DNA from: a virus
Lineage: Duplodnaviria > Heunggongvirae > Uroviricota > Caudoviricetes
IMG/VR virus record: IMGVR_UViG_2681813321_000010
Length of the DNA: 12,244 nucleotides
Strand: one strand, 5' to 3'
The position numbers and the translations under genes are program-made. Below are positions 1,725 to 12,244 of this stretch, one piece after another. The first letter of the stretch is position 1, and every line of letters starts with the position of its first letter. The notes under the pieces are model-generated. The model did no database searches, was not told the origin of the DNA, and saw only the letters and a program-made list of their open reading frames with translations.

Positions 1725-1955
1725 ATGCTTAAAACTGACGCTCTTTTGTATTTCGGTTCAAAAACAAAACTTGCACAAGCAGCAGGTATTCGTTTGGCTT
1801 CGCTTTATAGCTGGAAAGGGGATTTAGTTCCCGAAGGTCGCGCGATGCGTCTACAGGAGGCATCTGGCGGGGAGCTTCAGTATGATCCCAAAGTTTATGA
1901 TGAATATCGTAAGACGAAGCGGGCGGGGCGGTTGAACAATGAAAATCACTCCTGA
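1725..1955 (+). CDS. dicC: DicC, Cro-like regulator
   Basis: 76-aa product MLKTDALLYFGSKTKLAQAAGIRLASLYSWKGDLVPEGRAMRLQEASGGELQYDPKVYDEYRK... matches my recollection of DicC; divergent from dicA. Confidence 0.9.
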   Translation: MLKTDALLYFGSKTKLAQAAGIRLASLYSWKGDLVPEGRAMRLQEASGGELQYDPKVYDEYRKTKRAGRLNNENHS

Positions 1956-2460
1956 ACAGGCTCGTGAGGCTCTGGATGCCTGGATATGTCGACCAGGAAT
2001 GACACAGGAGCAGGCGACGATATTAATCACTGAAGCATTCTGGGCTTTGAAAGAGCGCCCGAACATCGATGTTCAGCGTGTCACAGATGAAGGTGGCGCG
2101 GTTGATCAGCGAGCGCTTGGCGTTAATCGAGTGAAGATATTCGAACGCTGGAAGGCTATCGACACCAGGGATAAGCGTGAAAAGTTCACGGCGCTAGTGC
2201 CTGCGATTATGGAGGCTATCCGGATTAGTGATTTCAGGTTGTATCGTGAGATCAGTGATGGAAAAAGTATTACGTACATGATCGCCGGGTTAAATAAAGA
2301 ATATGGCGATGTGGTGGAATCCGGACTGCTTTTTGCAGATCCTGCCGTTGTAGATCGTGAAACTGACGAACTTATAGAAAAAGCAATTGCTTTCAAGCTT
2401 GCGTATCGACAGCAATACCAACAAAAAGCTGGATGGAATTATGAGTCTTCTTTTTGCTGA
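1939..2460 (+). CDS. YdaT-like protein in the CII position (putative regulator)
   Basis: 173-aa ORF overlapping the dicC 3' end; segment VKIFERWKAIDTRDKREKFTALVPAIMEAI resembles the YdaT-family core as I recall it; family assignment is from memory only. Confidence 0.6.
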   Translation: MKITPEQAREALDAWICRPGMTQEQATILITEAFWALKERPNIDVQRVTDEGGAVDQRALGVNRVKIFERWKAIDTRDKREKFTALVPAIMEAIRISDFRLYREISDGKSITYMIAGLNKEYGDVVESGLLFADPAVVDRETDELIEKAIAFKLAYRQQYQQKAGWNYESSFC

Positions 2461-3406
2461 ACGCCCACTGGTTATAAACACGCAGCTGGCAATGAAAATT
2501 GGCTTAAACGAAGCCATTGTTTTGCAACAACTGCACTACTGGTTGAGAGATACCAACTCCGGCATGGAATGTGATGGTGTTCGCTGGATTTATAACACAA
2601 CGGAACAATGGCTGGAACAGTTCCCATTCTGGTCAGAGTCAACGTTAAAGCGCGCGTTTGCAAGTCTGAAAACGCTGGGGCTTTTGCGTTGTGAAAAGCT
2701 CAATAAATCAAAGCGCGATATGACCAATTTCTACACGATCAACTACGGGAGCGAGCTTTTAGATGGTGGCAAATTGAGCGAATCCATCGGTTTAAAATGC
2801 GCCGCTCCATCAGGTCAAAATGACACGATGGAAGAGGTCAAAATGAAACGCTCCATTGGTTCAAAACGACTCAATGTCATCGGGTCAAAATGGCCTGATG
2901 ATCTTACAGAGAATACAACAGAGATTACTACAGAGAATAAAAAGACTTCTCGTCCGGAAGCTTCGCAACCGGACCCGCAGACGGTTGAACAGGATTTTTT
3001 AACCCGACACCCTGACGCGGTTGTGTTCAGTGCGAAAAAACGCCAGTGGGGCAGCCAGGAAGATTTGGCGTGTGCGCAGTGGATCTGGGGGCGAATCGTG
3101 AGTCTTTACGAGCAGGCCGCCAGCGATGATGGCGAGATTTCGCGACCGAAAGAACCCAACTGGACCGCATGGGCCAACGACGTGCGCACAATGCGGATGC
3201 TGGATGGCAGAACTCACAGACAAATTTGTGAAATGTTTGGTCGGGTGCAGCGGGATCCATTCTGGGTAAAAAATATCATGAGTCCGTCAAAGCTTCGCGA
3301 AAAATGGGATGAACTGGTTATCCGCCTGGGGCGTTCGTCTGTACAGCGTTGTGTGAATCATATTTCTGAGCCGGATACCGAAATTCCGCCGGGCTTCAGG
3401 GGGTAA
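2441..3406 (+). CDS. Replication initiator, lambda O-like (N-terminal DNA-binding domain, TE-rich linker, C-terminal domain)
   Basis: Track ORF begins at TTG 2387; the ATG at 2441 overlaps the upstream stop (ATGAGTCTT...TGA) and is the likelier start; contains iterons plus an AT-rich tract inside the coding sequence, as lambda O does. Confidence 0.75.
   Translation: MSLLFAERPLVINTQLAMKIGLNEAIVLQQLHYWLRDTNSGMECDGVRWIYNTTEQWLEQFPFWSESTLKRAFASLKTLGLLRCEKLNKSKRDMTNFYTINYGSELLDGGKLSESIGLKCAAPSGQNDTMEEVKMKRSIGSKRLNVIGSKWPDDLTENTTEITTENKKTSRPEASQPDPQTVEQDFLTRHPDAVVFSAKKRQWGSQEDLACAQWIWGRIVSLYEQAASDDGEISRPKEPNWTAWANDVRTMRMLDGRTHRQICEMFGRVQRDPFWVKNIMSPSKLREKWDELVIRLGRSSVQRCVNHISEPDTEIPPGFRG
2783..2941 (+). 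repeat. Putative replication origin inside the O-like gene: five iterons followed by three 12-bp A-rich repeats
   Basis: Iterons of consensus about TCCATCGGGTCAAAATG starting at 2783, 2806, 2829, 2852, 2876 (23-24 bp period); then ACAGAGAATACA / ACAGAGATTACT / ACAGAGAATAAA at 2906-2941. Confidence 0.7.
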
Positions 3407-3446
3407 GTGTTAATTTCTGGTCATGAGGTAATTTTCAGGAGGGCTT

Positions 3447-3869
3447 GTGGCAAAAGTTTTTACACAAGAAGAGCGGGAAAAAATTAAAGGGCAGGTTGTT
3501 GAACTCGTACGCCGGAGTGGGCGTGAGACGTTACGGCAACTGGAAGTCAAGACAGGTGCGACAAGATATCTGATGAGCGTTCTCGCAAGAGAGCTGGTTG
3601 CCAGCGGCGATGTATACAACTCTGGTTACGGGTTATTCCCGTCTGAACAGGCGCGTAAGGACTGGCAAAATGCCCGTAAAAAGCTCTCAAGGGCAAAGCT
3701 GAAGGAACCATCTGCGGTTGATCCGGACCTTATCTGGTCATTACCTGACGGAGAAATACGTCGCTACGACAGGCGTCAGAACATAATCTGTCGCGAGTGC
3801 CGGAAGAGTGAAGTTATGCAGCGCATACTAGCATTCTATCAGGGAAATGCTCGATATTTATTGAAGTGA
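3447..3869 (+). CDS. Hypothetical 140-aa protein in the P position after the initiator (C-terminal CxxC)
   Basis: GTG start 4 nt after AGGAGG (3437-3442); the paralog at 7824 has ATG at the same relative position after AGGAGG; conserved between the two modules. Confidence 0.75.
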   Translation: MAKVFTQEEREKIKGQVVELVRRSGRETLRQLEVKTGATRYLMSVLARELVASGDVYNSGYGLFPSEQARKDWQNARKKLSRAKLKEPSAVDPDLIWSLPDGEIRRYDRRQNIICRECRKSEVMQRILAFYQGNARYLLK

Positions 3870-4121
3870 TGAGATTAAAGTTTATTAGTTCAGATATTGA
3901 TTGGCTCTTTTGTGGAGTAGGGTAGAGTTAGTGTGTTTGTCTGCTTGGTGCCAGCAGCGGATATGTTTAACAACAGAAAGCATTCAGCATGGTTAGTGGA
4001 TTTGCAAAGTGGATTAGGATTTGAGAAACTTTGATGAAGTTGTAAAGCTTGTTTCTATAAAAATAGAAATTTAACTAATAGTTAAACACACCTCCAGCTT
4101 CATTGAAAAGGATTATTAGCT

Positions 4122-4547
4122 ATGATTGATCCACTTATTAGAAACTTACAGAGTGATATTGCACTACTCCAGCTTTATATCGCGCAACGCAAACAGGCAG
4201 GCTTTCATGACATGGAAAGAATAATTGAGTCATTGACCATCTTTATGTTTCGCGCGCTGAAAATGGGTGAACTGGTAAACATGAATCAGATTAAAGTTAA
4301 TTTTCCCGCCATTGATTTAGCTGATAATAAAAACATGATAGCAGTTCAAGTTACTACGAATGCAAGTCCAGCAAAAATTAAAAAAACTATCGAATCTTTT
4401 GAGAAAATAAATGAAATAGGAGAGAGTCTGAAAGATAAATACTCTACTTTATATATTTTTGGTTTTAACTGTTCCGCGTGCGCTCAGCCGCATTCACCGC
4501 ATCACAAAATTCACTTTAAAAACGGCGGCAGAGCAGTCACGGAGTAA
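4122..4547 (+). pseudogene. Probable 5' fragment of an AT-rich cargo gene, truncated at the repeat junction (about 4456); the ORF tail runs into the dicF region
   Basis: Strongly AT-rich codons up to 4455, then the last ~30 codons lie in repeat sequence whose copy-1 equivalent (74-165) is preceded by unrelated DNA; ORF end overlaps dicF copy 2 on the opposite strand. Confidence 0.45.
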
Positions 4548-4575
4548 AACTGATACCGCCAAACGTCACCAGAAA
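4518..4575 (-). ncRNA. dicF: DicF small RNA, second copy
   Basis: Identical to 136-193 at offset 4382; in this copy the repeat ends about 60 bp downstream of the terminator, so no dicB can follow. Confidence 0.8.
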
Positions 4576-4915
4576 ATTGATAACAGAGGGCGTTGCAGCG
4601 GGGTTGTCGCTTAAGCGTATGGTCAACCTGACAACCCGGTGTCCTCAACGGGGAAGGAATAACCCCGCCATACTTACCGCCGCGCCATTTCGCGGAGTGC
4701 CACAACCGGAAGCGCACGGTCGACGAAAATTTAACGACAGGCTATCTATGAACCAGCTACCTCGCCGTGCGCTTTCGCGTTATGGTCTGACTTTTCATGG
4801 AAATATCCTTTCAGTAAACTGTCAGTGCCGGATGCTCACCCATGTCCGGCGCACGCACTCCACCTCACCCGTGGAGAACTCCTTAATTACCAACCTTAGC
4901 TTCGTTGGTTAGCTA

Positions 4916-5134
4916 TTAACGCGGGTATGTAATCATTCTGGCAATGCTTAATGCCGCTGCTTTTTCCAGCCTGGTGATATCCTGCTCCAGAGCGGACAGA
5001 TTTTCAGCCTGCTTAGCCCTGGCTTCATTGGCCCATTTCAGATCCTGCGCTGCATTAATTTTCTGGCGCATCCACTCATAAAGTTCATCATCGGTATAGT
5101 CTGGCGAGATGATGACGGGTTCTCGTTTCTGCAT
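4916..5134 (-). CDS. ydfC: YdfC, second copy
   Basis: 72-aa ORF identical in protein to 534-752. Confidence 0.8.
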   Translation of the reverse strand: MQKREPVIISPDYTDDELYEWMRQKINAAQDLKWANEARAKQAENLSALEQDITRLEKAAALSIARMITYPR

Positions 5135-5163
5135 ACTGATTCCTCGCGGTGCTGCTTCGCTTA

Positions 5164-5292
5164 TCAGCCGTTAGATTTTGCCGAGCTGGAAAGCGCCTGT
5201 TTAAACTCACTGAAGCTGAGAGCTTCTTCGCCTTCGGCAAGGCCTTCGAAGTATTCTTCGTAAGCCTTTTCCATGATTGTGTCGAAATCCAT
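5164..5292 (-). CDS. ydfB: YdfB, second copy (42 aa)
   Basis: DNA identical to 782-910 at offset 4382. Confidence 0.75.
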   Translation of the reverse strand: MDFDTIMEKAYEEYFEGLAEGEEALSFSEFKQALSSSAKSNG

Positions 5293-5293
5293 A

Positions 5294-5449
5294 TCACTCA
5301 CCTGAGTTTCTTTCCAGCCAGCGACGGGCACCATTTTCGGTTTTAAACGTTTTGCTTCTGGTATACGTCATCGCGGTAAACGTGCCGTCCTGGTTGGGAA
5401 ACACGCCGCATACCAGAGATTCGTTGTTGCCAAGATCGATAGTATTCAT
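5294..5449 (-). CDS. ydfA: YdfA, second copy (51 aa, two substitutions relative to copy 1)
   Basis: Same internal ATG as copy 1; product MNTIDLGNNESLVCGVFPNQ... Confidence 0.8.
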   Translation of the reverse strand: MNTIDLGNNESLVCGVFPNQDGTFTAMTYTRSKTFKTENGARRWLERNSGE

Positions 5450-5529
5450 GCTGACCTCATTTCCCCTTAACGCCGGGGTAGCGGAACTGTTTGCTGAGAA
5501 CACCGTGCGGTGTCTTGGTGGAGATTAAT

Positions 5530-5579
5530 TTAGAATAACCTAACAAATGTAGCAAGTATTTTTGTTAGATTGGTCTAAC
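5530..5579. promoter_or_regulatory. Putative operator pair downstream of the dicA-like gene (module 2 leftward-operon control region)
   Basis: TTAGAATAACCTAA (5530-5543) and palindrome GTTAGA-TTGG-TCTAAC (5564-5579); same TTAG/CTAA half-site logic as module 1. Confidence 0.45.
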
Positions 5580-5616
5580 AAAAAGAGTGAGGGAATCTAA
5601 GTATCTGAAAGGAGTG

Positions 5617-6024
5617 TTATTTTATTGATTTGTTTTTACGTGCTTTAAGCATTTCTTCGAAGAGTTTATTGAAATTCTCTACTCTTGCGCGCATTTCAGA
5701 CAGTAAGGCTTCCTGCTCGGAGGAGGGAAGAGCATCGAATAATTCGATCAATTCTTTGTGGCTGGGAGTTAACTCGGTTTCCACATGAAGTTCTTGTGCT
5801 GGCACTGGTGCCTTGTCTTCGTCACCAAACATTAGCCATGTAGGCGAGCACTTCAGCGCATCAGCTAAAGCAAATAACCGCTTCCCGACCGGTTGGGTTT
5901 CGTCTCTTTCCCATTGTGAAATTGTGACGTGAGCTACCCCAGCGAGGCGTGCAGCTTCTCGTTGTGTTAGGCGTAATTCTTTTCGTCGTGCCAGAACTCG
6001 CTGGCCTAGGGTTCTTGTATCCAT
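5617..6024 (-). CDS. DicA-like HTH repressor, divergent paralog (CI-like immunity repressor of module 2)
   Basis: 135 aa; C-terminal half nearly identical to DicA (...CSPTW..FGDEDK...EMRARV.NFNKLFEE.LKAR), N-terminal HTH diverged (QREAARLAGVAHVTISQWE). Confidence 0.85.
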   Translation of the reverse strand: MDTRTLGQRVLARRKELRLTQREAARLAGVAHVTISQWERDETQPVGKRLFALADALKCSPTWLMFGDEDKAPVPAQELHVETELTPSHKELIELFDALPSSEQEALLSEMRARVENFNKLFEEMLKARKNKSIK

Positions 6025-6030
6025 AGTTAG

Positions 6031-6090
6031 GTAATTCTAATTTTTCTTGACTTAGGTATCCCGCGCACATTACTGTTAGGAATATCTAAC
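6031..6090. promoter_or_regulatory. Module 2 divergent control region with operator palindromes
   Basis: TTAGGTAATTCTAA (6031-6044) abuts the dicA-like start; TTGACT at 6047-6052; GTTAGGAATATCTAAC (6075-6090) precedes the dicC-like gene. Confidence 0.45.
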
Positions 6091-6104
6091 AAGAGGGGGC
6101 TTTG

Positions 6105-6332
6105 ATGCTTAAAGTTGACGCAATTACTTTTTTTGGCAGCAAAACAAAACTTGCCAATGCCGCAGGAGTGAAACTGGCAAGTGTTGCTGCATGGGGGGAA
6201 CTGGTTCCTGAAGGTCGCGCGATGCGCCTGCAAGAGGCATCCGGCGGGGAACTTCAGTACGACCCCAAAGTTTATGACGAATATCGTAAGGCAAAGCGGG
6301 CGGGGCGGTTGAACAATGAAAATCACCCCTGA
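6105..6332 (+). CDS. DicC-like Cro-type regulator (paralog)
   Basis: Track ORF starts at TTG 6102; ATG at 6105 preceded by GAGGGGG; product about 85% identical to DicC by eye. Confidence 0.85.
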   Translation: MLKVDAITFFGSKTKLANAAGVKLASVAAWGELVPEGRAMRLQEASGGELQYDPKVYDEYRKAKRAGRLNNENHP

Positions 6333-6837
6333 ACAGGTTTGTGAGGCTCTGGATGCCTGGGTATGCCGACCAGGAATGACACAGGAGCAGGCGACGATAT
6401 TAATCACGGAAGCATTCTGGGCTCTGAAAGAACGCCCGAACATCGATGTTCAACGCGTCACGTTTAATGATGGCGAGGTTGATCAACGGGCGTTGGGCGT
6501 TAACCGGGTGAAGATATTCGAACGCTGGAAAGCTATCGACACCAGGGATAAGCGGGAAAAATTCACGGCGCTGATTCCGGCAATTATGGAGGCTATCCGG
6601 ATCAGCGATTTCAGGTTGTATTGTGAAATTACTGACGGAAAAAGCATTACGTACATGATCGCCGGGTTAAACAAAGAATATGGTGATGTGGTGGAGTCCG
6701 GGCTGCTTTTTGCGGATCCATCTGTTGTGGAACGTGAGACTGACGAGCTTATAGAAAAAGCTATTGCTTTCAAGCATGCGTATCGTCAGCAATACCAACA
6801 AAAAGCTGGATGGAATTATGAGCCTTCTTTTTGCTGA
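6316..6837 (+). CDS. YdaT-like protein in the CII position (paralog of 1939-2460)
   Basis: 173 aa, roughly 90% identical by eye to the module 1 copy; same overlap arrangement with neighbouring genes. Confidence 0.6.
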   Translation: MKITPEQVCEALDAWVCRPGMTQEQATILITEAFWALKERPNIDVQRVTFNDGEVDQRALGVNRVKIFERWKAIDTRDKREKFTALIPAIMEAIRISDFRLYCEITDGKSITYMIAGLNKEYGDVVESGLLFADPSVVERETDELIEKAIAFKHAYRQQYQQKAGWNYEPSFC

Positions 6838-7783
6838 ACGCCCACTGGTTATAAACACACAGCTTGCGATGAAGATTGGCTTAAATGAAGCCATTGTGTT
6901 GCAGCAGTTGCATTACTGGTTGAGAGATACCAGTTCCGGTATGGAATGTGACGGGGTTCGCTGGATTTATAACACAACAGAACAATGGCTGGAACAGTTC
7001 CCGTTCTGGTCAGAGTCAACGTTAAAACGCGCATTTGCAAGTCTGAAAACGCTGGGGCTTTTGCGTTGCGAAAAGCTCAACAAATCAAAGCGTGATATGA
7101 CTAATTTTTACACGATTAATTACGAGAGTGAGCTTTTAGATGGTGGCAAAGTGAGCGAATCCATCAGGTCAAAATGCGCCGCTCCATCGGGTCAAAATGA
7201 CACGATGGAAGAGGTCAAAATGGCACGCTCCATTGGTTCAAAACGACCCAATGTCATCGGGTCAAAATGGCCTGATGATCTTACAGAGAATACAACAGAG
7301 ATTACTACAGAGAATAAAAACACTTCTCGTCCGGAAGCTTCGCAACCGGACCCGCAGACGGCTGAACAGGATTTTTTAACCCGACACCCTGACGCGGTTG
7401 TGTTCAGTGCGAAAAAACGCCAGTGGGGAAGTCAGGAAGATTTGGCGTGCGCACAGTGGATCTGGGGACGAATCGTGAGTCTTTACGAGCAGGCTGCCAG
7501 CGATGATGGCGAGATCACGCGACCGAAAGAACCAAACTGGACCGCATGGGCCAATGACGTGCGCACAATGCGGATGCTGGATGGCAGAAGCCACAGACAA
7601 ATTTGCGAAATGTTTGGTCGGGTACAGCGAGATCCATTCTGGGTAAAAAACATCATGAGCCCGTCAAAGCTTCGCGAAAAATGGGACGACCTGGTCATCC
7701 GCCTGGGGCGTTCACCTGTACAGTGTTGTGTGAATCATATTTCTGAACCGGATACCGAAATTCCGCCTGGTTTCAGGGGATAA
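6818..7783 (+). CDS. Replication initiator, lambda O-like (paralog)
   Basis: ATG at 6818 overlaps the upstream stop exactly as in module 1; carries the equivalent iterons. Confidence 0.75.
   Translation: MSLLFAERPLVINTQLAMKIGLNEAIVLQQLHYWLRDTSSGMECDGVRWIYNTTEQWLEQFPFWSESTLKRAFASLKTLGLLRCEKLNKSKRDMTNFYTINYESELLDGGKVSESIRSKCAAPSGQNDTMEEVKMARSIGSKRPNVIGSKWPDDLTENTTEITTENKNTSRPEASQPDPQTAEQDFLTRHPDAVVFSAKKRQWGSQEDLACAQWIWGRIVSLYEQAASDDGEITRPKEPNWTAWANDVRTMRMLDGRSHRQICEMFGRVQRDPFWVKNIMSPSKLREKWDDLVIRLGRSPVQCCVNHISEPDTEIPPGFRG
7160..7318 (+). repeat. Putative replication origin of module 2 (five iterons plus A-rich 12-bp repeats)
   Basis: Iterons begin at 7160, 7183, 7206, 7229, 7253, the same positions as module 1 at offset 4377. 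Confidence 0.7.
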
Positions 7784-7823
7784 GTGGTGATTTTAGGGCA
7801 TAAAGTAATGTTCAGGAGGACTT

Positions 7824-8231
7824 ATGGCAAAAGTATTTACACAGGAAGAGCGGGAAAAAATTAAAGGACAGGTGGTGGAACTCGTGCGCCAGAGCGGTCG
7901 TGAGACGTTACGGCAACTGGAAGCTAAAACAGGTGCGACAAGATATCTGATGAGCGTTCTTGCCAGAGAGCTGGTTGCCAGTGGTGATGTATATCACTCT
8001 GGCTATGGGGTGTTCCCGTCAGAACGGGCTCGTAAGGACTGGCAAAACGCCCGCAAAAAACTCTCGAGGGCAAAGGTGAAGAAACCTGTTGTGGTTGATC
8101 CGGGCCTTATCTGGACATTACCCGACGGAGAAATACGCCGCTACGACAGGCGTATGAACATAATCTGTCGCGAGTGCCGGAAGAGCGAAGTTATGCAGCG
8201 TGTATTGGCGTTCTATCAGGGATATGCCTAG
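7824..8231 (+). CDS. Hypothetical 135-aa protein in the P position (paralog of 3447-3869)
   Basis: ATG 4 nt after AGGAGG; about 90% identical by eye to the module 1 copy. Confidence 0.75.
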   Translation: MAKVFTQEEREKIKGQVVELVRQSGRETLRQLEAKTGATRYLMSVLARELVASGDVYHSGYGVFPSERARKDWQNARKKLSRAKVKKPVVVDPGLIWTLPDGEIRRYDRRMNIICRECRKSEVMQRVLAFYQGYA

Positions 8232-8599
8232 AATTGTCACAGGTAATGAAATTAAAGAGTATTGGTTCGGATATGAATTGACATTTTCGCGGCACAGAGC
8301 TAAAAATAGCCTACTTGTTGGTTTTGTGTGAAAAGCAGACATTTTGAGGCTCAGGATTTGTTATCAAATAAGACCAATACTTATCTATATTAATACACAT
8401 TAAATACTGTGCAATACATTATTGCATTTTATTAGATAAGCGATATTTAGGGAAAAGAAAAGTCATAGAAAACAGGCCGCTATTTGTTGTTGGATTTTAT
8501 AGGCTATATCTAGATTATCTTGCCACTGCGGTCTCTGTTTACCTAACAGCTTGGGCTTCTTTGCATGCAAGTTTGTAATAACAAGAGTAATCAAACGGA

Positions 8600-9631
8600 A
8601 TGTCTATTAATCCTAAACTTAAGCGTATCGCGCGACGCTATCCAGCGTTATTCCAATATGAGTCCCCCTATATGGCAAGAAAATTAATAATATTCGGCAA
8701 CGGTCTCGGTATGGCTTTAGATCCTGCTCACTTCTCCTTAGACAGAGCGTTGGAAGAAATTTGGCATCGCCCCAATTTTTTAAAAGATATCCACAAGCAA
8801 CTTATCGAGCGTTGTCTTCAGCGGCAAGGTCCACCAGAAGGAGAACATGAGTTGGATACCCTTCACCAGGCTGTCACATATTGTAAAGCTCTTGCTCAAA
8901 TTGGAGAGGGGAACGTGCATTGGCTTACTGAAGATGGACTAAACTTCCCCAAAATTACCGCCACTTATATTCACAAAGTTGCAACCAGGTTGCATAATTA
9001 CGATAAAGGTTTGCCACAAAGATTCGAAAATGCGCTTGTGGAGTTTGTAAAGAACACACACTCACATATCGCGACATTAAACTATGACAAATTATTATAC
9101 AATTCATTCATAGATAATGATATATTCAACGGGTATGATGGGGTTTTAGTTGATGGGATGCTAAGCCACGGATTTTCCTCTGCAGCGCTCGAACGGAAAT
9201 ACAATCGTAGGTTTGGTTATTATTTGCACTTGCATGGTTCACCACTATTTATTAATCAGCATGAAAATGTTTTAAAACTTTCACGCTCACAACTTACTCT
9301 TGACATAGATGAACCTAGTGAGCATATAGTGTTAACTCATATAAAAAGAAAACCGTCAGTTATAGCAGCATCTAATGTTCTTTCTACGTACTGGGATTAT
9401 TTGCAGTTTGCATTATTTGAATCAGAAGAAATAATATTGTTTGGTTACTCTGGTCTCGATATTCACCTTAACCTGCTTATTCGACCTTACCTAACCTCTA
9501 AGCCTTTAAGAGTAATTGAGTGGAGCGGTGCTGGTGAACAAAACGCTCGTGAGATATATTGGAAAAACCAGTTGAGACGGGAAGTTACTGTAATTAGGTT
9601 GGATAACATCACTGATTTTATTGATTGGTAG
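8600..9631 (+). CDS. SIR2-like (SIR2_2-type) single-domain protein, candidate NAD-consuming defence or abortive-infection effector
   Basis: 343 aa, AT-rich codon usage; ordered motifs LIIFGNGLG (Rossmann-like), TLNYDKL (sirtuin-type N/D), YLHLHGS (His), ILFGYSGLD, in the same order as SIR2-like domains such as Thoeris ThsA; preceded by about 370 bp of AT-rich DNA. Confidence 0.6.
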   Translation: MSINPKLKRIARRYPALFQYESPYMARKLIIFGNGLGMALDPAHFSLDRALEEIWHRPNFLKDIHKQLIERCLQRQGPPEGEHELDTLHQAVTYCKALAQIGEGNVHWLTEDGLNFPKITATYIHKVATRLHNYDKGLPQRFENALVEFVKNTHSHIATLNYDKLLYNSFIDNDIFNGYDGVLVDGMLSHGFSSAALERKYNRRFGYYLHLHGSPLFINQHENVLKLSRSQLTLDIDEPSEHIVLTHIKRKPSVIAASNVLSTYWDYLQFALFESEEIILFGYSGLDIHLNLLIRPYLTSKPLRVIEWSGAGEQNAREIYWKNQLRREVTVIRLDNITDFIDW

Positions 9632-9701
9632 CGCAATGCGAAGTTAAAGAGGCAGCCTCATATTTATCAGAGCTGGTGTACGTCCAATACAGGAGGTTAT
9701 C

Positions 9702-9791
9702 GTGCTGGTTCTCAAATGCGCGCTGGCTATTGCGGCTGTAGTGGCAATTTATTGTCTTGCTATTGTTCTTATGGATCGCCTTTCTGATTGA
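9702..9791 (+). CDS. Candidate 29-aa hydrophobic single-helix peptide (VLVLKCALAIAAVVAIYCLAIVLMDRLSD)
   Basis: GTG start 5 nt after a perfect AGGAGG (9691-9696); uniformly hydrophobic core of about 20 residues; below the ORF-track size cutoff. Confidence 0.4.
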   Translation: MLVLKCALAIAAVVAIYCLAIVLMDRLSD

Positions 9792-10002
9792 TTTTATATT
9801 GGCGAGGTGACGGGAGTTAAGTAGAATTGCTGCGGGTGCTTGAGGCTGTCTGCCTCGGGCATGCCACCGTAAGGCAGACAGAGAAAAGCCCCAGTTAACA
9901 TTACGCGTCCTGCAAGACGCTTAACATTAATCTGAGGCCCAATCTATGCTTCACAAACGTAGGTTAGCCTCTTACGCGCCGAAAGGCAAGGAGAAGCAGG
10001 CT

Positions 10003-10158
10003 ATGAAGCAGCAAAAGGCGATGTTAATCGCCCTGATCGTCATCTGTTTAACCGTCATAGTGACGGCACTGGTAACGAGGAAAGACCTCTGCGAGGTACG
10101 AATCCGAACCGGCCAGACGGAGGTCGCTGTCTTCACAGCTTACGAACCTGAGGAGTAA
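10003..10158 (+). CDS. hokD: HokD (RelF), Hok/Gef-family type I membrane toxin
   Basis: MKQQKAMLIALIVICLTVIVTALVTRKDLCEVRIRTGQTEVAVFTAYEPEE matches my recollection of HokD and the Hok signature (TRK.LCE.R...G..EVA.F.AYE); the track ORF from 9946 is an in-frame upstream extension. Confidence 0.85.
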   Translation: MKQQKAMLIALIVICLTVIVTALVTRKDLCEVRIRTGQTEVAVFTAYEPEE

Positions 10159-10226
10159 GAGACCAGGCGGGGGAGAAATCCCTCGCCACCGCTGATGTGT
10201 CAGGCATCCTCAACGCACCCGCACTT

Positions 10227-10253
10227 AACCCGCTTCGGCGGGTTTTTGTTTTT
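10227..10253 (+). terminator. Intrinsic terminator after hokD
   Basis: CCCGC-TTCG-GCGGG stem-loop (10229-10242) followed by TTTTTGTTTTT. Confidence 0.8.
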
Positions 10254-10266
10254 ATTTTCAACGCAT

Positions 10267-10296
10267 TTGAAGTTCTGGACGGTGTCGGAATAGAAT
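10267..10296 (+). promoter_or_regulatory. Candidate sigma70 promoter for the 83-aa gene
   Basis: TTGAAG (10267-10272), 18-bp spacer, TAGAAT (10291-10296); lies just after the hokD terminator. Confidence 0.4.
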
Positions 10297-10374
10297 CAAA
10301 AATACTTAAGTAGCGCGCAGGGATAAGAGGGATGGTCCCTTAAAGGGGAGAGCTAATTATCCGGAAGGATTCTG

Positions 10375-10626
10375 ATGATGAACATCGAAGAACTGCGTAA
10401 AATTTTTTGTGAAGATGGCCTCTATGCTGTGTGCGTTGAAAATGGAAATATTGTTAGTCATTACCGCATTGTGTGTTTGCGAAAGAATGGGGCTGCGTTA
10501 ATTAATTTTGTGGATGGTCGAGTGACAGACGGATTTATCTTGCGCGAAGGTGAGTTTGTCACTTCATTACAGGCACTGAAAGAGATCGGAATAAAAGCTG
10601 GCTTTTCTGCTTTTTCAGAAGAATAA
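10375..10626 (+). CDS. 83-aa hypothetical prophage protein, possibly the Rem homolog
   Basis: GGAAGG 6 nt upstream of the ATG; same size as Rem (83 aa) and same position between hokD and the ydfU-like gene as in Qin; I cannot recall the Rem sequence to confirm. Confidence 0.65.
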   Translation: MMNIEELRKIFCEDGLYAVCVENGNIVSHYRIVCLRKNGAALINFVDGRVTDGFILREGEFVTSLQALKEIGIKAGFSAFSEE

Positions 10627-10692
10627 ACTCATCTACAATCTTGCGCGGGGCTGAACTCCCGCTGAGTAACACCGTGCCGCCGGAGGAAACCG

Positions 10693-10971
10693 ATGGCACG
10701 CAACGCAAAATATTACAATCATGATAATTCGACCGTTCTTGCCCACACGCACGAGCGGTATTCTCACGCATTTAAGTCAGACTGGTACCAGCATCCCCCA
10801 TGCACTGAAGAACAGGCCGAATGGCTCATTCAGTGTTACCGCAGGCGCGGATGCGAGGTTAAAAAAGCCCTTAGCCTCGACTACCGTCACTGGATAATCT
10901 CCGTCGGGCTTCCTTACTCCGAACGCCCACCGCGTCTGTCCCGCACATTCCAGCAACGCATCTGGAGGTAA
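10693..10971 (+). CDS. 92-aa hypothetical protein
   Basis: GGAGG 7 nt upstream of the ATG; stop immediately precedes the next gene's start. Confidence 0.6.
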   Translation: MARNAKYYNHDNSTVLAHTHERYSHAFKSDWYQHPPCTEEQAEWLIQCYRRRGCEVKKALSLDYRHWIISVGLPYSERPPRLSRTFQQRIWR

Positions 10972-10972
10972 C

Positions 10973-12022
10973 GTGCGGGTATTACTTCGACCTGTTCTGG
11001 TACCGGAACTCGGGCTGGTGGTCCTTAAGCCCGGTCGCGAATCACTGCCGGTTTTTCATTGCGGCAGGGTGCTGGTGGAGCCGGAACCGAAAAGCATGCG
11101 CGGTCTGCCGTCCGGAGTCGTCCCTGCCGTTCGCCAGCCGCTGGCGGAGGATAAATCATTACTGCCATTTTTCAGCGATGAGCGTGTGATTCGTGCTGCT
11201 GGCGGCGCTGGCGCACTGTCTGACTGGCTCCTGCGTCATGTCAAATCCTGCCAGTGGCCTCATGGTGACTACCATCACAGTGAAACCGTCATACATCGTT
11301 ATGGTACCGGCGCAATGGTGTTGTGCTGGCACTGCGACAACCAGCTGCGCGACCAGACCTCCGAATCACTCGGGCAACTTGCTCACCAAAACCTGTCTGC
11401 ATGGATGATTGACGTCATACGCCATGCAATGAATGGCTCGCAGGAACGGGAATTATCGCTGGCTGAATTATCCTGGTGGGCGATCCGCAATCAGGTGGCG
11501 GACGCGCTACCGGAAGCGGTATTACGTCGTTCGCTGGGGTTGCGTGCGGAAAAAATCCGCTCAATGTACCGTGAAAGCGACATCGTACCGGGAGAGCAGA
11601 CCGCCACCAGCATACTGAAACAGCGCACAAAAAATCTTGCGCCGCTGCCTCACGCCCACCAGCAACAGAACCCGCCACAGGAAAAGACGGTGGTCAGCAT
11701 TGCTGTTGATCCGGAGTCTCCGGAATCTTTAATGAAGCGACCTAAACGTCGCCGTTGGGTAAATGAGAAATATACGCGCTGGGTAAAGACACAGCCGTGT
11801 GCGTGTTGTGGTAAGCCAGCCGACGATCCCCATCACCTGATTGGTCATGGTCAGGGCGGAATAGGGACAAAAGCCCACGATATTTTCACGCTACCGTTGT
11901 GCCGGGAGCATCACAACGAACTTCATGCTGATCCGCTGGCATTTGAAGAAAAGCATGGTTCCCAGATTGATTTAATTTTTCGTTTTCTTGATCGCGCCTT
12001 TGCAACCGGCGTGCTCGGGTAA
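10973..12022 (+). CDS. DUF968-family prophage protein (YdfU-like) with a C-terminal HNH-like Cys/His motif
   Basis: 349 aa; GTG start after GGAGG; C-terminus CACCGKPADDPHHLIGHG...LPLCREHHNELHA resembles HNH/zinc-binding nuclease motifs; size and synteny match Qin ydfU. Confidence 0.7.
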   Translation: MRVLLRPVLVPELGLVVLKPGRESLPVFHCGRVLVEPEPKSMRGLPSGVVPAVRQPLAEDKSLLPFFSDERVIRAAGGAGALSDWLLRHVKSCQWPHGDYHHSETVIHRYGTGAMVLCWHCDNQLRDQTSESLGQLAHQNLSAWMIDVIRHAMNGSQERELSLAELSWWAIRNQVADALPEAVLRRSLGLRAEKIRSMYRESDIVPGEQTATSILKQRTKNLAPLPHAHQQQNPPQEKTVVSIAVDPESPESLMKRPKRRRWVNEKYTRWVKTQPCACCGKPADDPHHLIGHGQGGIGTKAHDIFTLPLCREHHNELHADPLAFEEKHGSQIDLIFRFLDRAFATGVLG

Positions 12023-12034
12023 AAGAGGTTACTG

Positions 12035-12244
12035 ATGCGTATAGAGTTTGTTTTGCCTTACCCGCCGACGGTGAACACCTACTGGCGACGTCGTGGCAGC
12101 ACATATTTTGTGTCAAAAGCCGGTGAGCGTTATCGCCGGGATGTGGCACTTATTGTTCGCCAGCAGCGGCTGAAATTAAACCTGTCCGGAAGGCTGGCGA
12201 TAAAGATTATTGCAGAGCCACCGGATAAGCGCCGCCGCGACCTG
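12035..12244 (+). CDS. rusA: RusA-family Holliday-junction resolvase, 5' partial (runs off the window end)
   Basis: MRIEFVLPYPPTVNTYWRRRG...YRRDVALIV...IKIIAEPPDKRRRDL matches the RusA N-terminal pattern (P..N.Y....G......YR..VA.I......I.I....PD.RRRDLDN); AGAGG ribosome-binding site. Confidence 0.8.
   Translation, partial: MRIEFVLPYPPTVNTYWRRRGSTYFVSKAGERYRRDVALIVRQQRLKLNLSGRLAIKIIAEPPDKRRRDL

Follow-up and report, generated by a model that had tools for sequence, protein, structure and literature searches.

Several small single-helix proteins of the Escherichia coli inner membrane (KdpF, CydX, CydH/YnhF, AcrZ, MgtS, MgrB and PmrR) bind larger membrane proteins, and a further group of small hydrophobic membrane peptides, the type I toxins (Hok/Gef, Ldr/Fst, TisB, Ibs, ShoB, DinQ and ZorO), is marked by a conserved antisense or adjacent RNA antitoxin with its own promoter. 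Here we describe a small open reading frame (ORF) that can be compared with both. It is carried on a 12,244-nucleotide (nt) stretch of DNA from a virus of the Caudoviricetes (IMG/VR record IMGVR_UViG_2681813321_000010), referred to below as the window, where it occupies positions 9702-9791 of the + strand between the stop of a SIR2-family gene (9631) and hokD (10003-10158). The small ORF opens with GTG, runs for 29 sense codons and closes with TGA; its product is MLVLKCALAIAAVVAIYCLAIVLMDRLSD.

By analogy, the product may be likened to proteins of the KdpF/CydX/AcrZ type in its length of ~29 residues, its one hydrophobic helix with short charged ends, its exposed Shine-Dalgarno sequence and its lack of an antitoxin; unlike those proteins, it is prophage-borne, has no conserved partner gene in its neighbourhood and shows no Pfam or NCBIfam similarity. 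With the type I toxins it shares the character of a small hydrophobic peptide encoded beside hok/sok in a mobile element, but it has neither a conserved antisense promoter nor a leader that hides the ribosome-binding site, and neither a family match nor detectable homology to Hok. Its location corresponds to the 'moron' or cargo slots of lambdoid phages between the replication genes and nin/Q, in which SIR2 genes, restriction enzymes, transporters and other accessory genes vary; unlike such exchangeable cargo, the small ORF is a constant flank.

The family has been listed before. The orthologue in E. coli BL21 (NC_012971.2, 1591437-1591524, - strand) is found in Table S4 of Fesenko, Sahakyan, Shabalina and Koonin (2024; PMC11188072), where it is given a ratio of nonsynonymous to synonymous substitution rates (dN/dS) of 0.46 and belongs to the purifying-selection set Entero67K as part of cluster Escherichia_98807 (389 members); the BL21 peptide, VLVLKCTLAIVAVMAIYCLVIVLMDHLSD, is 83% identical to the window peptide and is likewise encoded upstream of hokD. 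The catalogue entry is a single table row without description, context or function, and the main text mentions neither hok nor prophages (PMC11188072). No match to the small ORF was found in the supplements of the Sakai small-gene paper, or by a full-text literature search with the peptide sequence. A large computational catalogue and some scattered annotations thus list the family already, and its kind, the small hydrophobic membrane proteins, is well known; what is added here is its placement in the prophage backbone and at the edge of a cargo slot, the promoter-like site of its own, its divergent homologues, its copy on Shigella plasmids and its independence from SIR2.

A preliminary description of the window, made from its letters alone, had reported a 29-codon ORF for a hydrophobic peptide, preceded by AGGAGG and lying between the SIR2-family gene and hokD, and our coordinates agree with it. 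It had also called the ORF unannotated, which is correct for RefSeq insofar as nothing is annotated under the small-ORF block among the matches listed, but not for GenBank, where the identical peptide and close variants are entered as 'hypothetical protein' or 'membrane protein' (e.g. REL606 ACT39199.1), and one variant of the peptide is itself a RefSeq MULTISPECIES protein on 650 contigs.

Coding evidence for the small ORF

Given that AGGAGG followed after 4-9 nt by a start codon occurs three times in the window compared with 1.2 expected, and that at least three such motifs arose in 21 of 200 shuffles, the Shine-Dalgarno sequence alone was statistically unremarkable (the remaining two motifs do precede real DUF977 genes), and the status of the small ORF as a gene was therefore decided by comparing related sequences. 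Most of the related loci were retrieved from genome and viral collections with a degenerate pattern that requires an intact C-terminal half of the peptide. Since such a pattern biases the intact fraction upward, codons 2-16, which lie outside it, are reported separately.

The small ORF was intact in 134 of 136 related loci, which held 27 distinct intact nucleotide versions, and the loci found free of the pattern (10 by BLAST and 4 by other routes) were also intact. Over the 10 diverse BLAST-found loci and the 27 intact versions the start and the stop (9789-9791) were invariant, and there were no insertions or deletions (indels). In both broken copies the same 2-nt deletion is accompanied by loss of the Shine-Dalgarno sequence (AGGAGG to AGAAAG), as would be expected of a decayed gene.

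Variable columns were distributed 9/7/20 over the three codon positions (6/4/14 within codons 2-16), and the Nei-Gojobori ratio of nonsynonymous to synonymous differences per site (pN/pS), at 0.29 overall and 0.17 for codons 2-16, was the lowest among the six frames. Allele changes comprised 22 synonymous and 18 nonsynonymous changes, where 30% synonymous was expected (p = 8e-4; for codons 2-16, p = 3e-3). None of the distinct allele changes created a stop, and no other frame had a significant synonymous excess except the antisense frame that shares the wobble position. The replacements were conservative (V/M/I, I/V, A/V/T, D/E and R/H), and column identity was 0.91-0.99 in the ORF compared with 0.84-0.94 in the flanks. 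Conserved RNA structure was found in the ORF on neither strand (alignment-fold z = 0.12 and 1.75), and the single-sequence fold was ordinary (z = -0.27). The preliminary description had proposed looking for frameshifts and stops in homologous loci, and the ORF came through that comparison intact in all but two loci and with purifying selection in its own frame.

Related proteins were sought with an N-extended database variant of the peptide (42 residues) as the protein query. An exhaustive profile search of 1.84 billion representative proteins returned 17 relatives at E <= 0.001, and those with an organism given were all from Escherichia or Shigella, a statement that does not extend to the two most divergent, L139 and L141. 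One divergent relative, MLAALKGFVAILAVVAIYCLVVVLMDRLSD (L141), carries an in-frame insertion of one codon; another, MSDDISLAMEGALAVVAVVGVYCLVVFLMDRLGN, has an ATG start and its own AGGAGG; and in a third, MLALTCVLAIVAVLVIYCLVVAFMERFSDWRGRGS (L137), an 11-nt deletion removes the stop and six codons are added. The length of the small ORF across loci is 29-35 codons. GTG has been replaced by ATG in two independent contexts with a Shine-Dalgarno sequence present in each, and pairwise dN/dS among the divergent homologues and the window was 0.17-0.28 at a synonymous divergence (dS) of 1-1.6. A tblastn search against phage genomes found nothing beyond the same four Escherichia phages, and peptide searches of Pfam, NCBIfam and PHROGs (E <= 10), PADLOC (E <= 1) and PDB sequences returned no match.

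Published ribosome profiling bears on the same question. In reanalysed retapamulin data the BL21 orthologue had 13 initiation-site reads and 38 footprint reads over 0.90 of the ORF, and cydX had 3481 initiation reads in the same Table S4 (PMC11188072). It is the comparative evidence that raises the small ORF above chance, and on the strength of that comparison we regard it as very probably a genuine protein-coding gene. The small hydrophobic membrane-peptide gene of the preliminary description is thus supported by a coding signature, by a conserved Shine-Dalgarno sequence and start, and by published, weak ribosome-profiling reads in BL21.

It could be argued instead that the block is a conserved DNA or RNA element, such as a regulatory region of hok or a recombination anchor for the slot, within which the frame is incidental. 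The whole of 9649-9830 is indeed conserved, non-coding flanks included, the small ORF borders recombination breakpoints, and a block of 210 nt upstream shows some consensus structure (z = -3.4). An incidental frame, however, would sit poorly with a third-position and synonymous excess specific to the small-ORF frame, with a dN/dS of ~0.2 at saturated dS, with an indel that is in-frame and start codons that are swapped while the Shine-Dalgarno sequence is retained, with conservation of the ORF above its flanks but without conserved RNA structure, and with the published ribosome-profiling reads (PMC11188072). We consider this explanation very improbable.

Other frames in the region were tried and rejected. 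An overlapping Cys-rich frame, open for ~75 codons in the upstream consensus, had indels in 13 of 43 sequences, variable columns of 9/12/13 and pN/pS of 0.86-1.59, and a minus-strand ORF annotated over the region in phage HannyBb had pN/pS of 0.84 and was interrupted by stops in 5 of 27 versions. The upstream region was likewise without a coding signature.

Table 1. Features around the small ORF, in window coordinates
Feature	Position	Strand	Remarks
SIR2_2-family cargo gene, outside the module	8600-9631	+	RefSeq start 8672
Small-ORF module kept in the window	9649-9800	+	Homology to ~1850 E. coli genomes begins at ~9649, the SIR2 cargo junction
-10-like CATATT of the predicted sigma-70-like promoter of the small ORF	9659-9664	+	Conserved in 128 of 133 loci
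Shine-Dalgarno sequence AGGAGG	9691-9696	+	5-nt spacer before the GTG of the small ORF
Small ORF	9702-9791	+	Predicted single transmembrane helix, ~C6-M24; tail M-D/E-R/H-L-S-D conserved
hok promoter TTGGCG-17-TAGAAT	9799-9827	+	Begins 8 nt past the stop of the small ORF; conserved among related loci
hok mRNA leader and sok	9834-10008	+	Rfam RF01794, 116 bits
hokD coding sequence	10003-10158	+	RefSeq name; overlapping mok-like frame starts at 9946; terminator 10227-10244

Prophage context and the cargo slot

From 4456 to 12244 the window is 99.99% identical to a lambdoid prophage beside yccA in E. coli FDAARGOS_1059. The order there is integrase ... dicB, DicF, repressor/Cro, YdaT, a 339-residue protein, DUF977, SIR2, the small ORF, hokD, rem, DUF968 (ydfU), rusA and Q, and the small ORF is co-oriented with the early-right operon (cro to Q). 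Among 5426 complete E. coli genomes, the small-ORF block occurs at 80-100% identity in ~1850, the junction of the SIR2 end with the small ORF (at least 80% query coverage) in 30, the SIR2 gene at 99% identity in 30, and an 89%-identical relative of the SIR2 gene in 16.

We grouped the neighbours of the 102 loci that had enough flank, comparing 670 nt upstream. The left neighbours fell into 43 unrelated sequence groups. Annotated examples of genes to the left of the block are QueH, a restriction endonuclease, an acetyltransferase, an MFS transporter together with a gamma-glutamylcyclotransferase, a DUF4209 gene together with IS1, a trio of adenosine deaminase, nucleoside triphosphate (NTP) pyrophosphatase and SIR2 deacylase, a truncated DUF977 gene and a hypothetical protein of 444 residues. 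The right neighbours formed only two groups: 90 loci have hok, and the other 12 have a convergent DUF1971 gene. Homology breaks off on the left ~200-225 nt before the start in 75 of the 102 loci and nearer in the others (in the window, at 9649), and on the right ~10 nt past the stop in the 12 DUF1971 loci. Given 43 groups on the left and two on the right, the small ORF forms the unchanging right-hand limit of a cargo slot and is not a companion of SIR2. The slot, which extends from the replication genes (DUF977) to the hok/sok-nin region, is hypervariable, with the small ORF at its invariant right edge, and, as judged by sequence comparison, Qin/mEp460-like lambdoid prophages of Escherichia and Shigella carry the small ORF as part of their backbone.

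These counts bear directly on the suggestion in the preliminary description that the peptide could be a membrane partner or effector of the SIR2-family protein, an arrangement that would amount to a two-gene defence system. Viewed locally the suggestion has its attractions: the small ORF follows the SIR2 stop by 70 nt on the same strand and no terminator intervenes, all 46 genomes that have the SIR2 gene or its 89% relative carry it in this slot, and the presence of the small ORF was confirmed for the 30 close SIR2 matches and for one of the 16 relatives. A two-gene system would call for conserved co-occurrence, however, and what was found is a block carried by ~1850 genomes beside a SIR2 gene or relative carried by 46, with 43 unrelated groups of upstream cargo taking the same place and with the small ORF present by itself before icsP on Shigella plasmids. 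In the window, moreover, the small ORF's own -35 element is removed by the SIR2 junction, and PADLOC has no model that pairs a SIR2 protein with such a peptide. Homology of the common block begins at 9649, which indicates that the SIR2 gene was inserted into a slot that already existed. A partnership with SIR2 is accordingly improbable in the extreme, and the small ORF would almost certainly not be SIR2-specific. The SIR2_2 protein itself matches PADLOC models weakly (Aga_SIR2 and PDC-S21, E ~1e-5 to 1e-6) and, having no evident partner gene, may be single-gene cargo.

The second SIR2 allele, the 89%-identical one found in the same slot in 16 genomes, is accompanied by an extra ~100 nt that keeps the -35 of the small ORF (L137, E. 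coli N1420, 3500-3900). The N1420 small ORF, at 35 residues, is the most divergent E. coli chromosomal version.

In the Qin prophage of K-12 MG1655 (L138, 1645119-1645346) the small ORF, the hok promoter and nearly the whole hok leader are missing; relBE abuts hokD, with the end of relE 71 nt before hokD, and similarity to the window sets in 14 nt before the hokD ATG. This absence would fit with the small ORF not being, to our knowledge, among the small proteins characterized in K-12.

The window also holds two tandem copies of a lambdoid early region, in which 74-1135 corresponds to 4456-5517 and 1818-3897 to 6195-8274, one segment being 99.5% identical and another 90%. DicF RNA occurs twice on the minus strand (141-192 and 4523-4574), and the repressor genes differ between the copies (1234-1641 versus 5617-6024 and 6027-6443). 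FDAARGOS_1059 carries the second early-region copy only, and the arrangement in the window resembles tandem or recombined prophages. A SMEK_N-domain ORF (4122-4547, +) lies in the cargo slot after the DUF977 gene of the first copy; it is another accessory gene in the same type of slot, and since it reaches across 4456, where the second repeat copy begins, it may be truncated at that point.

Expression signals and nature of the peptide

Upstream of the small ORF the related loci have a promoter-like site, in which TTGAAT or TTGAAG (109 of 133 loci) is followed after exactly 17 nt by CATATT and then by a leader of ~30 nt. A Shine-Dalgarno core of GGAGG, GGAGA or GGGGG is present in all but three of the 133 loci, two of the exceptions being the frameshifted copies. 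The window departs from this pattern at the -35 position (9636-9641), which reads ATGCGA and not TTGAAT or TTGAAG; ATGCGA is confined to four window-type loci, and ~100 nt that the N1420-type SIR2 locus retains, the -35 among them, have been deleted in the window. The window copy would probably be expressed by read-through from the SIR2 gene or from the phage early transcript.

In a + strand scan of 9400-10400 the terminator-like matches were at 9726-9745, inside the ORF, and next at 10227-10244, after hokD. None was found between the stop of the small ORF and the hok promoter, and small-ORF transcripts should therefore continue into hok. Upstream of the small ORF the consensus context showed no intrinsic terminator, and no LexA box was seen by eye. 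The leader does not appear to hide the ribosome-binding site, the alignment fold of leader and ORF giving z = -1.35 and the single sequence the unremarkable value quoted above. A pairing of the Shine-Dalgarno sequence with GCCTC upstream of the -10, taken from the alignment fold, was rejected, since by eye it is absent in the divergent leaders and it would also fall outside a transcript from the small ORF's own promoter.

A conserved non-coding block of ~210 nt lies further upstream in related loci (e.g. L003, 2290-2560) and is absent to the left of 9649 in the window. It opens with the hairpin GTCCGCTT-N8-AAGCGGAC, its consensus structure exceeds that of column shuffles on the + strand, and it has neither a terminator-like T run nor a coding signature.

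Turning to the peptide, residues 6-24 have a mean Kyte-Doolittle hydropathy of 2.84, and an AlphaFold2 model of the peptide is one helix (predicted local distance difference test (pLDDT) score 93). A9, V13, Y17 and L19 are invariant over all variants, L2, L8, I10, A12, I16, C18, L23 and M24 are nearly so, and the tail follows the pattern M-D/E-R/H-L/F-S-D. The variable positions (7, 11, 14, 18, 20-22 and 25) showed a 100-degree periodicity at a permutation p of 0.05-0.11. The peptide has the attributes of the small membrane regulators, namely a single transmembrane helix in fewer than 50 residues and an ordinary ribosome-binding site, and the neighbourhood (102 loci) offers no conserved candidate for the gene of a larger membrane-protein partner.

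We favour, as the probable reading, that the small ORF product is a 29-residue single-pass inner-membrane microprotein, the modulator-like product of a prophage backbone gene. That it is a modulator rather than a silenced toxin is put forward more tentatively, as something just short of an even call, given the exposed and strong Shine-Dalgarno sequence, the promoter-like site of its own and the lack of any antitoxin-like feature. The peptide would insert as a single helix, K5 facing the cytoplasm and the acidic DRLSD tail lying outside, as the positive-inside rule suggests, and it might act through helix-helix contacts of its conserved core (L8-A9-I10, A12-V13, I16-Y17-C18-L19 and M24) together with the tail, either in self-association or with a membrane partner. 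Its behaviour would then be like that of the small regulatory membrane proteins of E. coli, and not like that of a tightly silenced toxin of the Hok type.

The preliminary description had also raised the possibility of an independent small toxin, in which case the small ORF would encode a type I toxin silenced by an unrecognised antisense or trans-acting small RNA. The size of the peptide, its hydrophobic helix and its short charged tail do resemble those of type I toxins, the first attribute of which, a small hydrophobic membrane peptide, is found here in the form of 29 residues and a single helix; the neighbouring hok/sok is another type I system; and the initiation signal in BL21 is very low (PMC11188072). 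The window even has a minus-strand promoter-like site, TTAACT-18-TAAAAT (9820 to 9791), that stands back-to-back with the hok promoter and would be antisense to the whole ORF. Its -10, however, reads TAAAAT in only 38 of 133 loci; 79 have TGAAAT, which lacks the key A of the second position, and 16 have TGTAAT. The -35 of this site overlaps the -10 region of hok, an overlap that could account for its conservation, and DUF1971-type loci read GTAACA or GCAAAC there.

No conserved antisense or adjacent RNA antitoxin with a promoter was thus found. No minus-strand promoter-like site inside the ORF faces the start region, the Shine-Dalgarno sequence is not sequestered, and conserved RNA structure is lacking on both strands. 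Rfam gave no match in the homologous region of L003 and, for an antitoxin RNA of the small ORF, none at the gathering threshold in the window. The searches of Pfam, NCBIfam, PHROGs and PADLOC gave no toxin family at the thresholds stated above, including Hok/Gef (PF01848, no Pfam match at E <= 10); BLASTP with the window HokD gave no alignment, and hhalign against HokD and further Hok sequences gave a probability of 1.9%. An independent type I toxin is, in our judgement, unlikely.

Several points weigh against the modulator-like membrane protein that we favour. The intact fraction of the related loci is inflated by the retrieval pattern. The promoter-like site is a predicted one and fits 8 of 12 consensus positions, and the window copy, with its -35 missing, may be poorly expressed. 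The translation signal is weak and indirect, coming from one strain, by third-party reanalysis, and from an allele different from that of the window (PMC11188072). The helical periodicity is marginal and is not used here as evidence, and the case against a toxin is a circumstantial one, in which the exposed Shine-Dalgarno sequence and the ORF's own promoter suggest that the peptide is tolerated.

The hok neighbour and the Shigella plasmid copy

Given that the hok leader and sok begin downstream of it (Table 1), the small ORF lies outside the hok/sok transcript. It might nevertheless be a component of the prophage hok locus, whether the peptide partners with, modulates or counteracts Hok or is a second, differently regulated membrane toxin, its own promoter in either case feeding into the hok promoter, or whether transcription of the small ORF tunes hok by occlusion or by a 5'-extended mRNA. 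The order of the genes speaks for such a tie: hok lies directly downstream in 90 of the 102 loci, the adjacency is kept in homologues with dS > 1, and no terminator-like site intervenes before the hok promoter. On the other side, 12 of the 102 loci have an intact small ORF with the convergent DUF1971 gene in place of hok, and the Shigella plasmids have an intact small ORF with the hok coding sequence gone, so that a link to hok is not obligatory. A purely transcriptional role would, in addition, need no protein-level constraint, and no sequence similarity to Hok was detected. We judge a functional tie to hok quite unlikely; that the two remain adjacent even at synonymous saturation is a reason not to lose sight of it.

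On Shigella virulence plasmids (S. flexneri pWR501, L142, NC_002698.1, 220153-220242, and 124 Shigella plasmid records) an intact copy of the microprotein gene, without annotation, precedes the omptin protease gene icsP by ~290 nt. This copy has an ATG start, AGGAGG and a promoter-like TTGAGT-17-CATATT, and its product is MLVLKGTLAIAAVMTIYCLIVVLMERFSD. Behind it stands a decayed remnant of the hok promoter and leader, TTGGCG-18-TAGAAT, which ends 254 nt before the icsP ATG. Given the small ORF and the hok remnant, part of the icsP upstream region, a well-studied one, is debris of a prophage hok locus. We also considered a leader peptide or upstream regulatory ORF and rejected it, as what lies downstream varies between hok with its own promoter, the convergent DUF1971 gene and icsP at a distance of ~290 nt.

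Should the microprotein belong to the hok locus after all, chromosomal and prophage hok loci, and the icsP upstream region of Shigella derived from them, would carry an extra layer of control. On the reading that we favour, a 29-codon ORF that RefSeq missed in the genomes closest to the window would be a real and widespread prophage gene, carried by roughly one in three complete E. coli genomes and also by virulence plasmids of Shigella. It removes a tempting but mistaken inference, that a SIR2 gene beside a membrane peptide makes a two-gene defence system, and since the small ORF marks the constant right border of a slot for defence and accessory cargo, it offers a practical anchor for finding such cargo. 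The immediate value lies in better annotation and in a clean candidate for small-protein studies rather than in a new mechanism.

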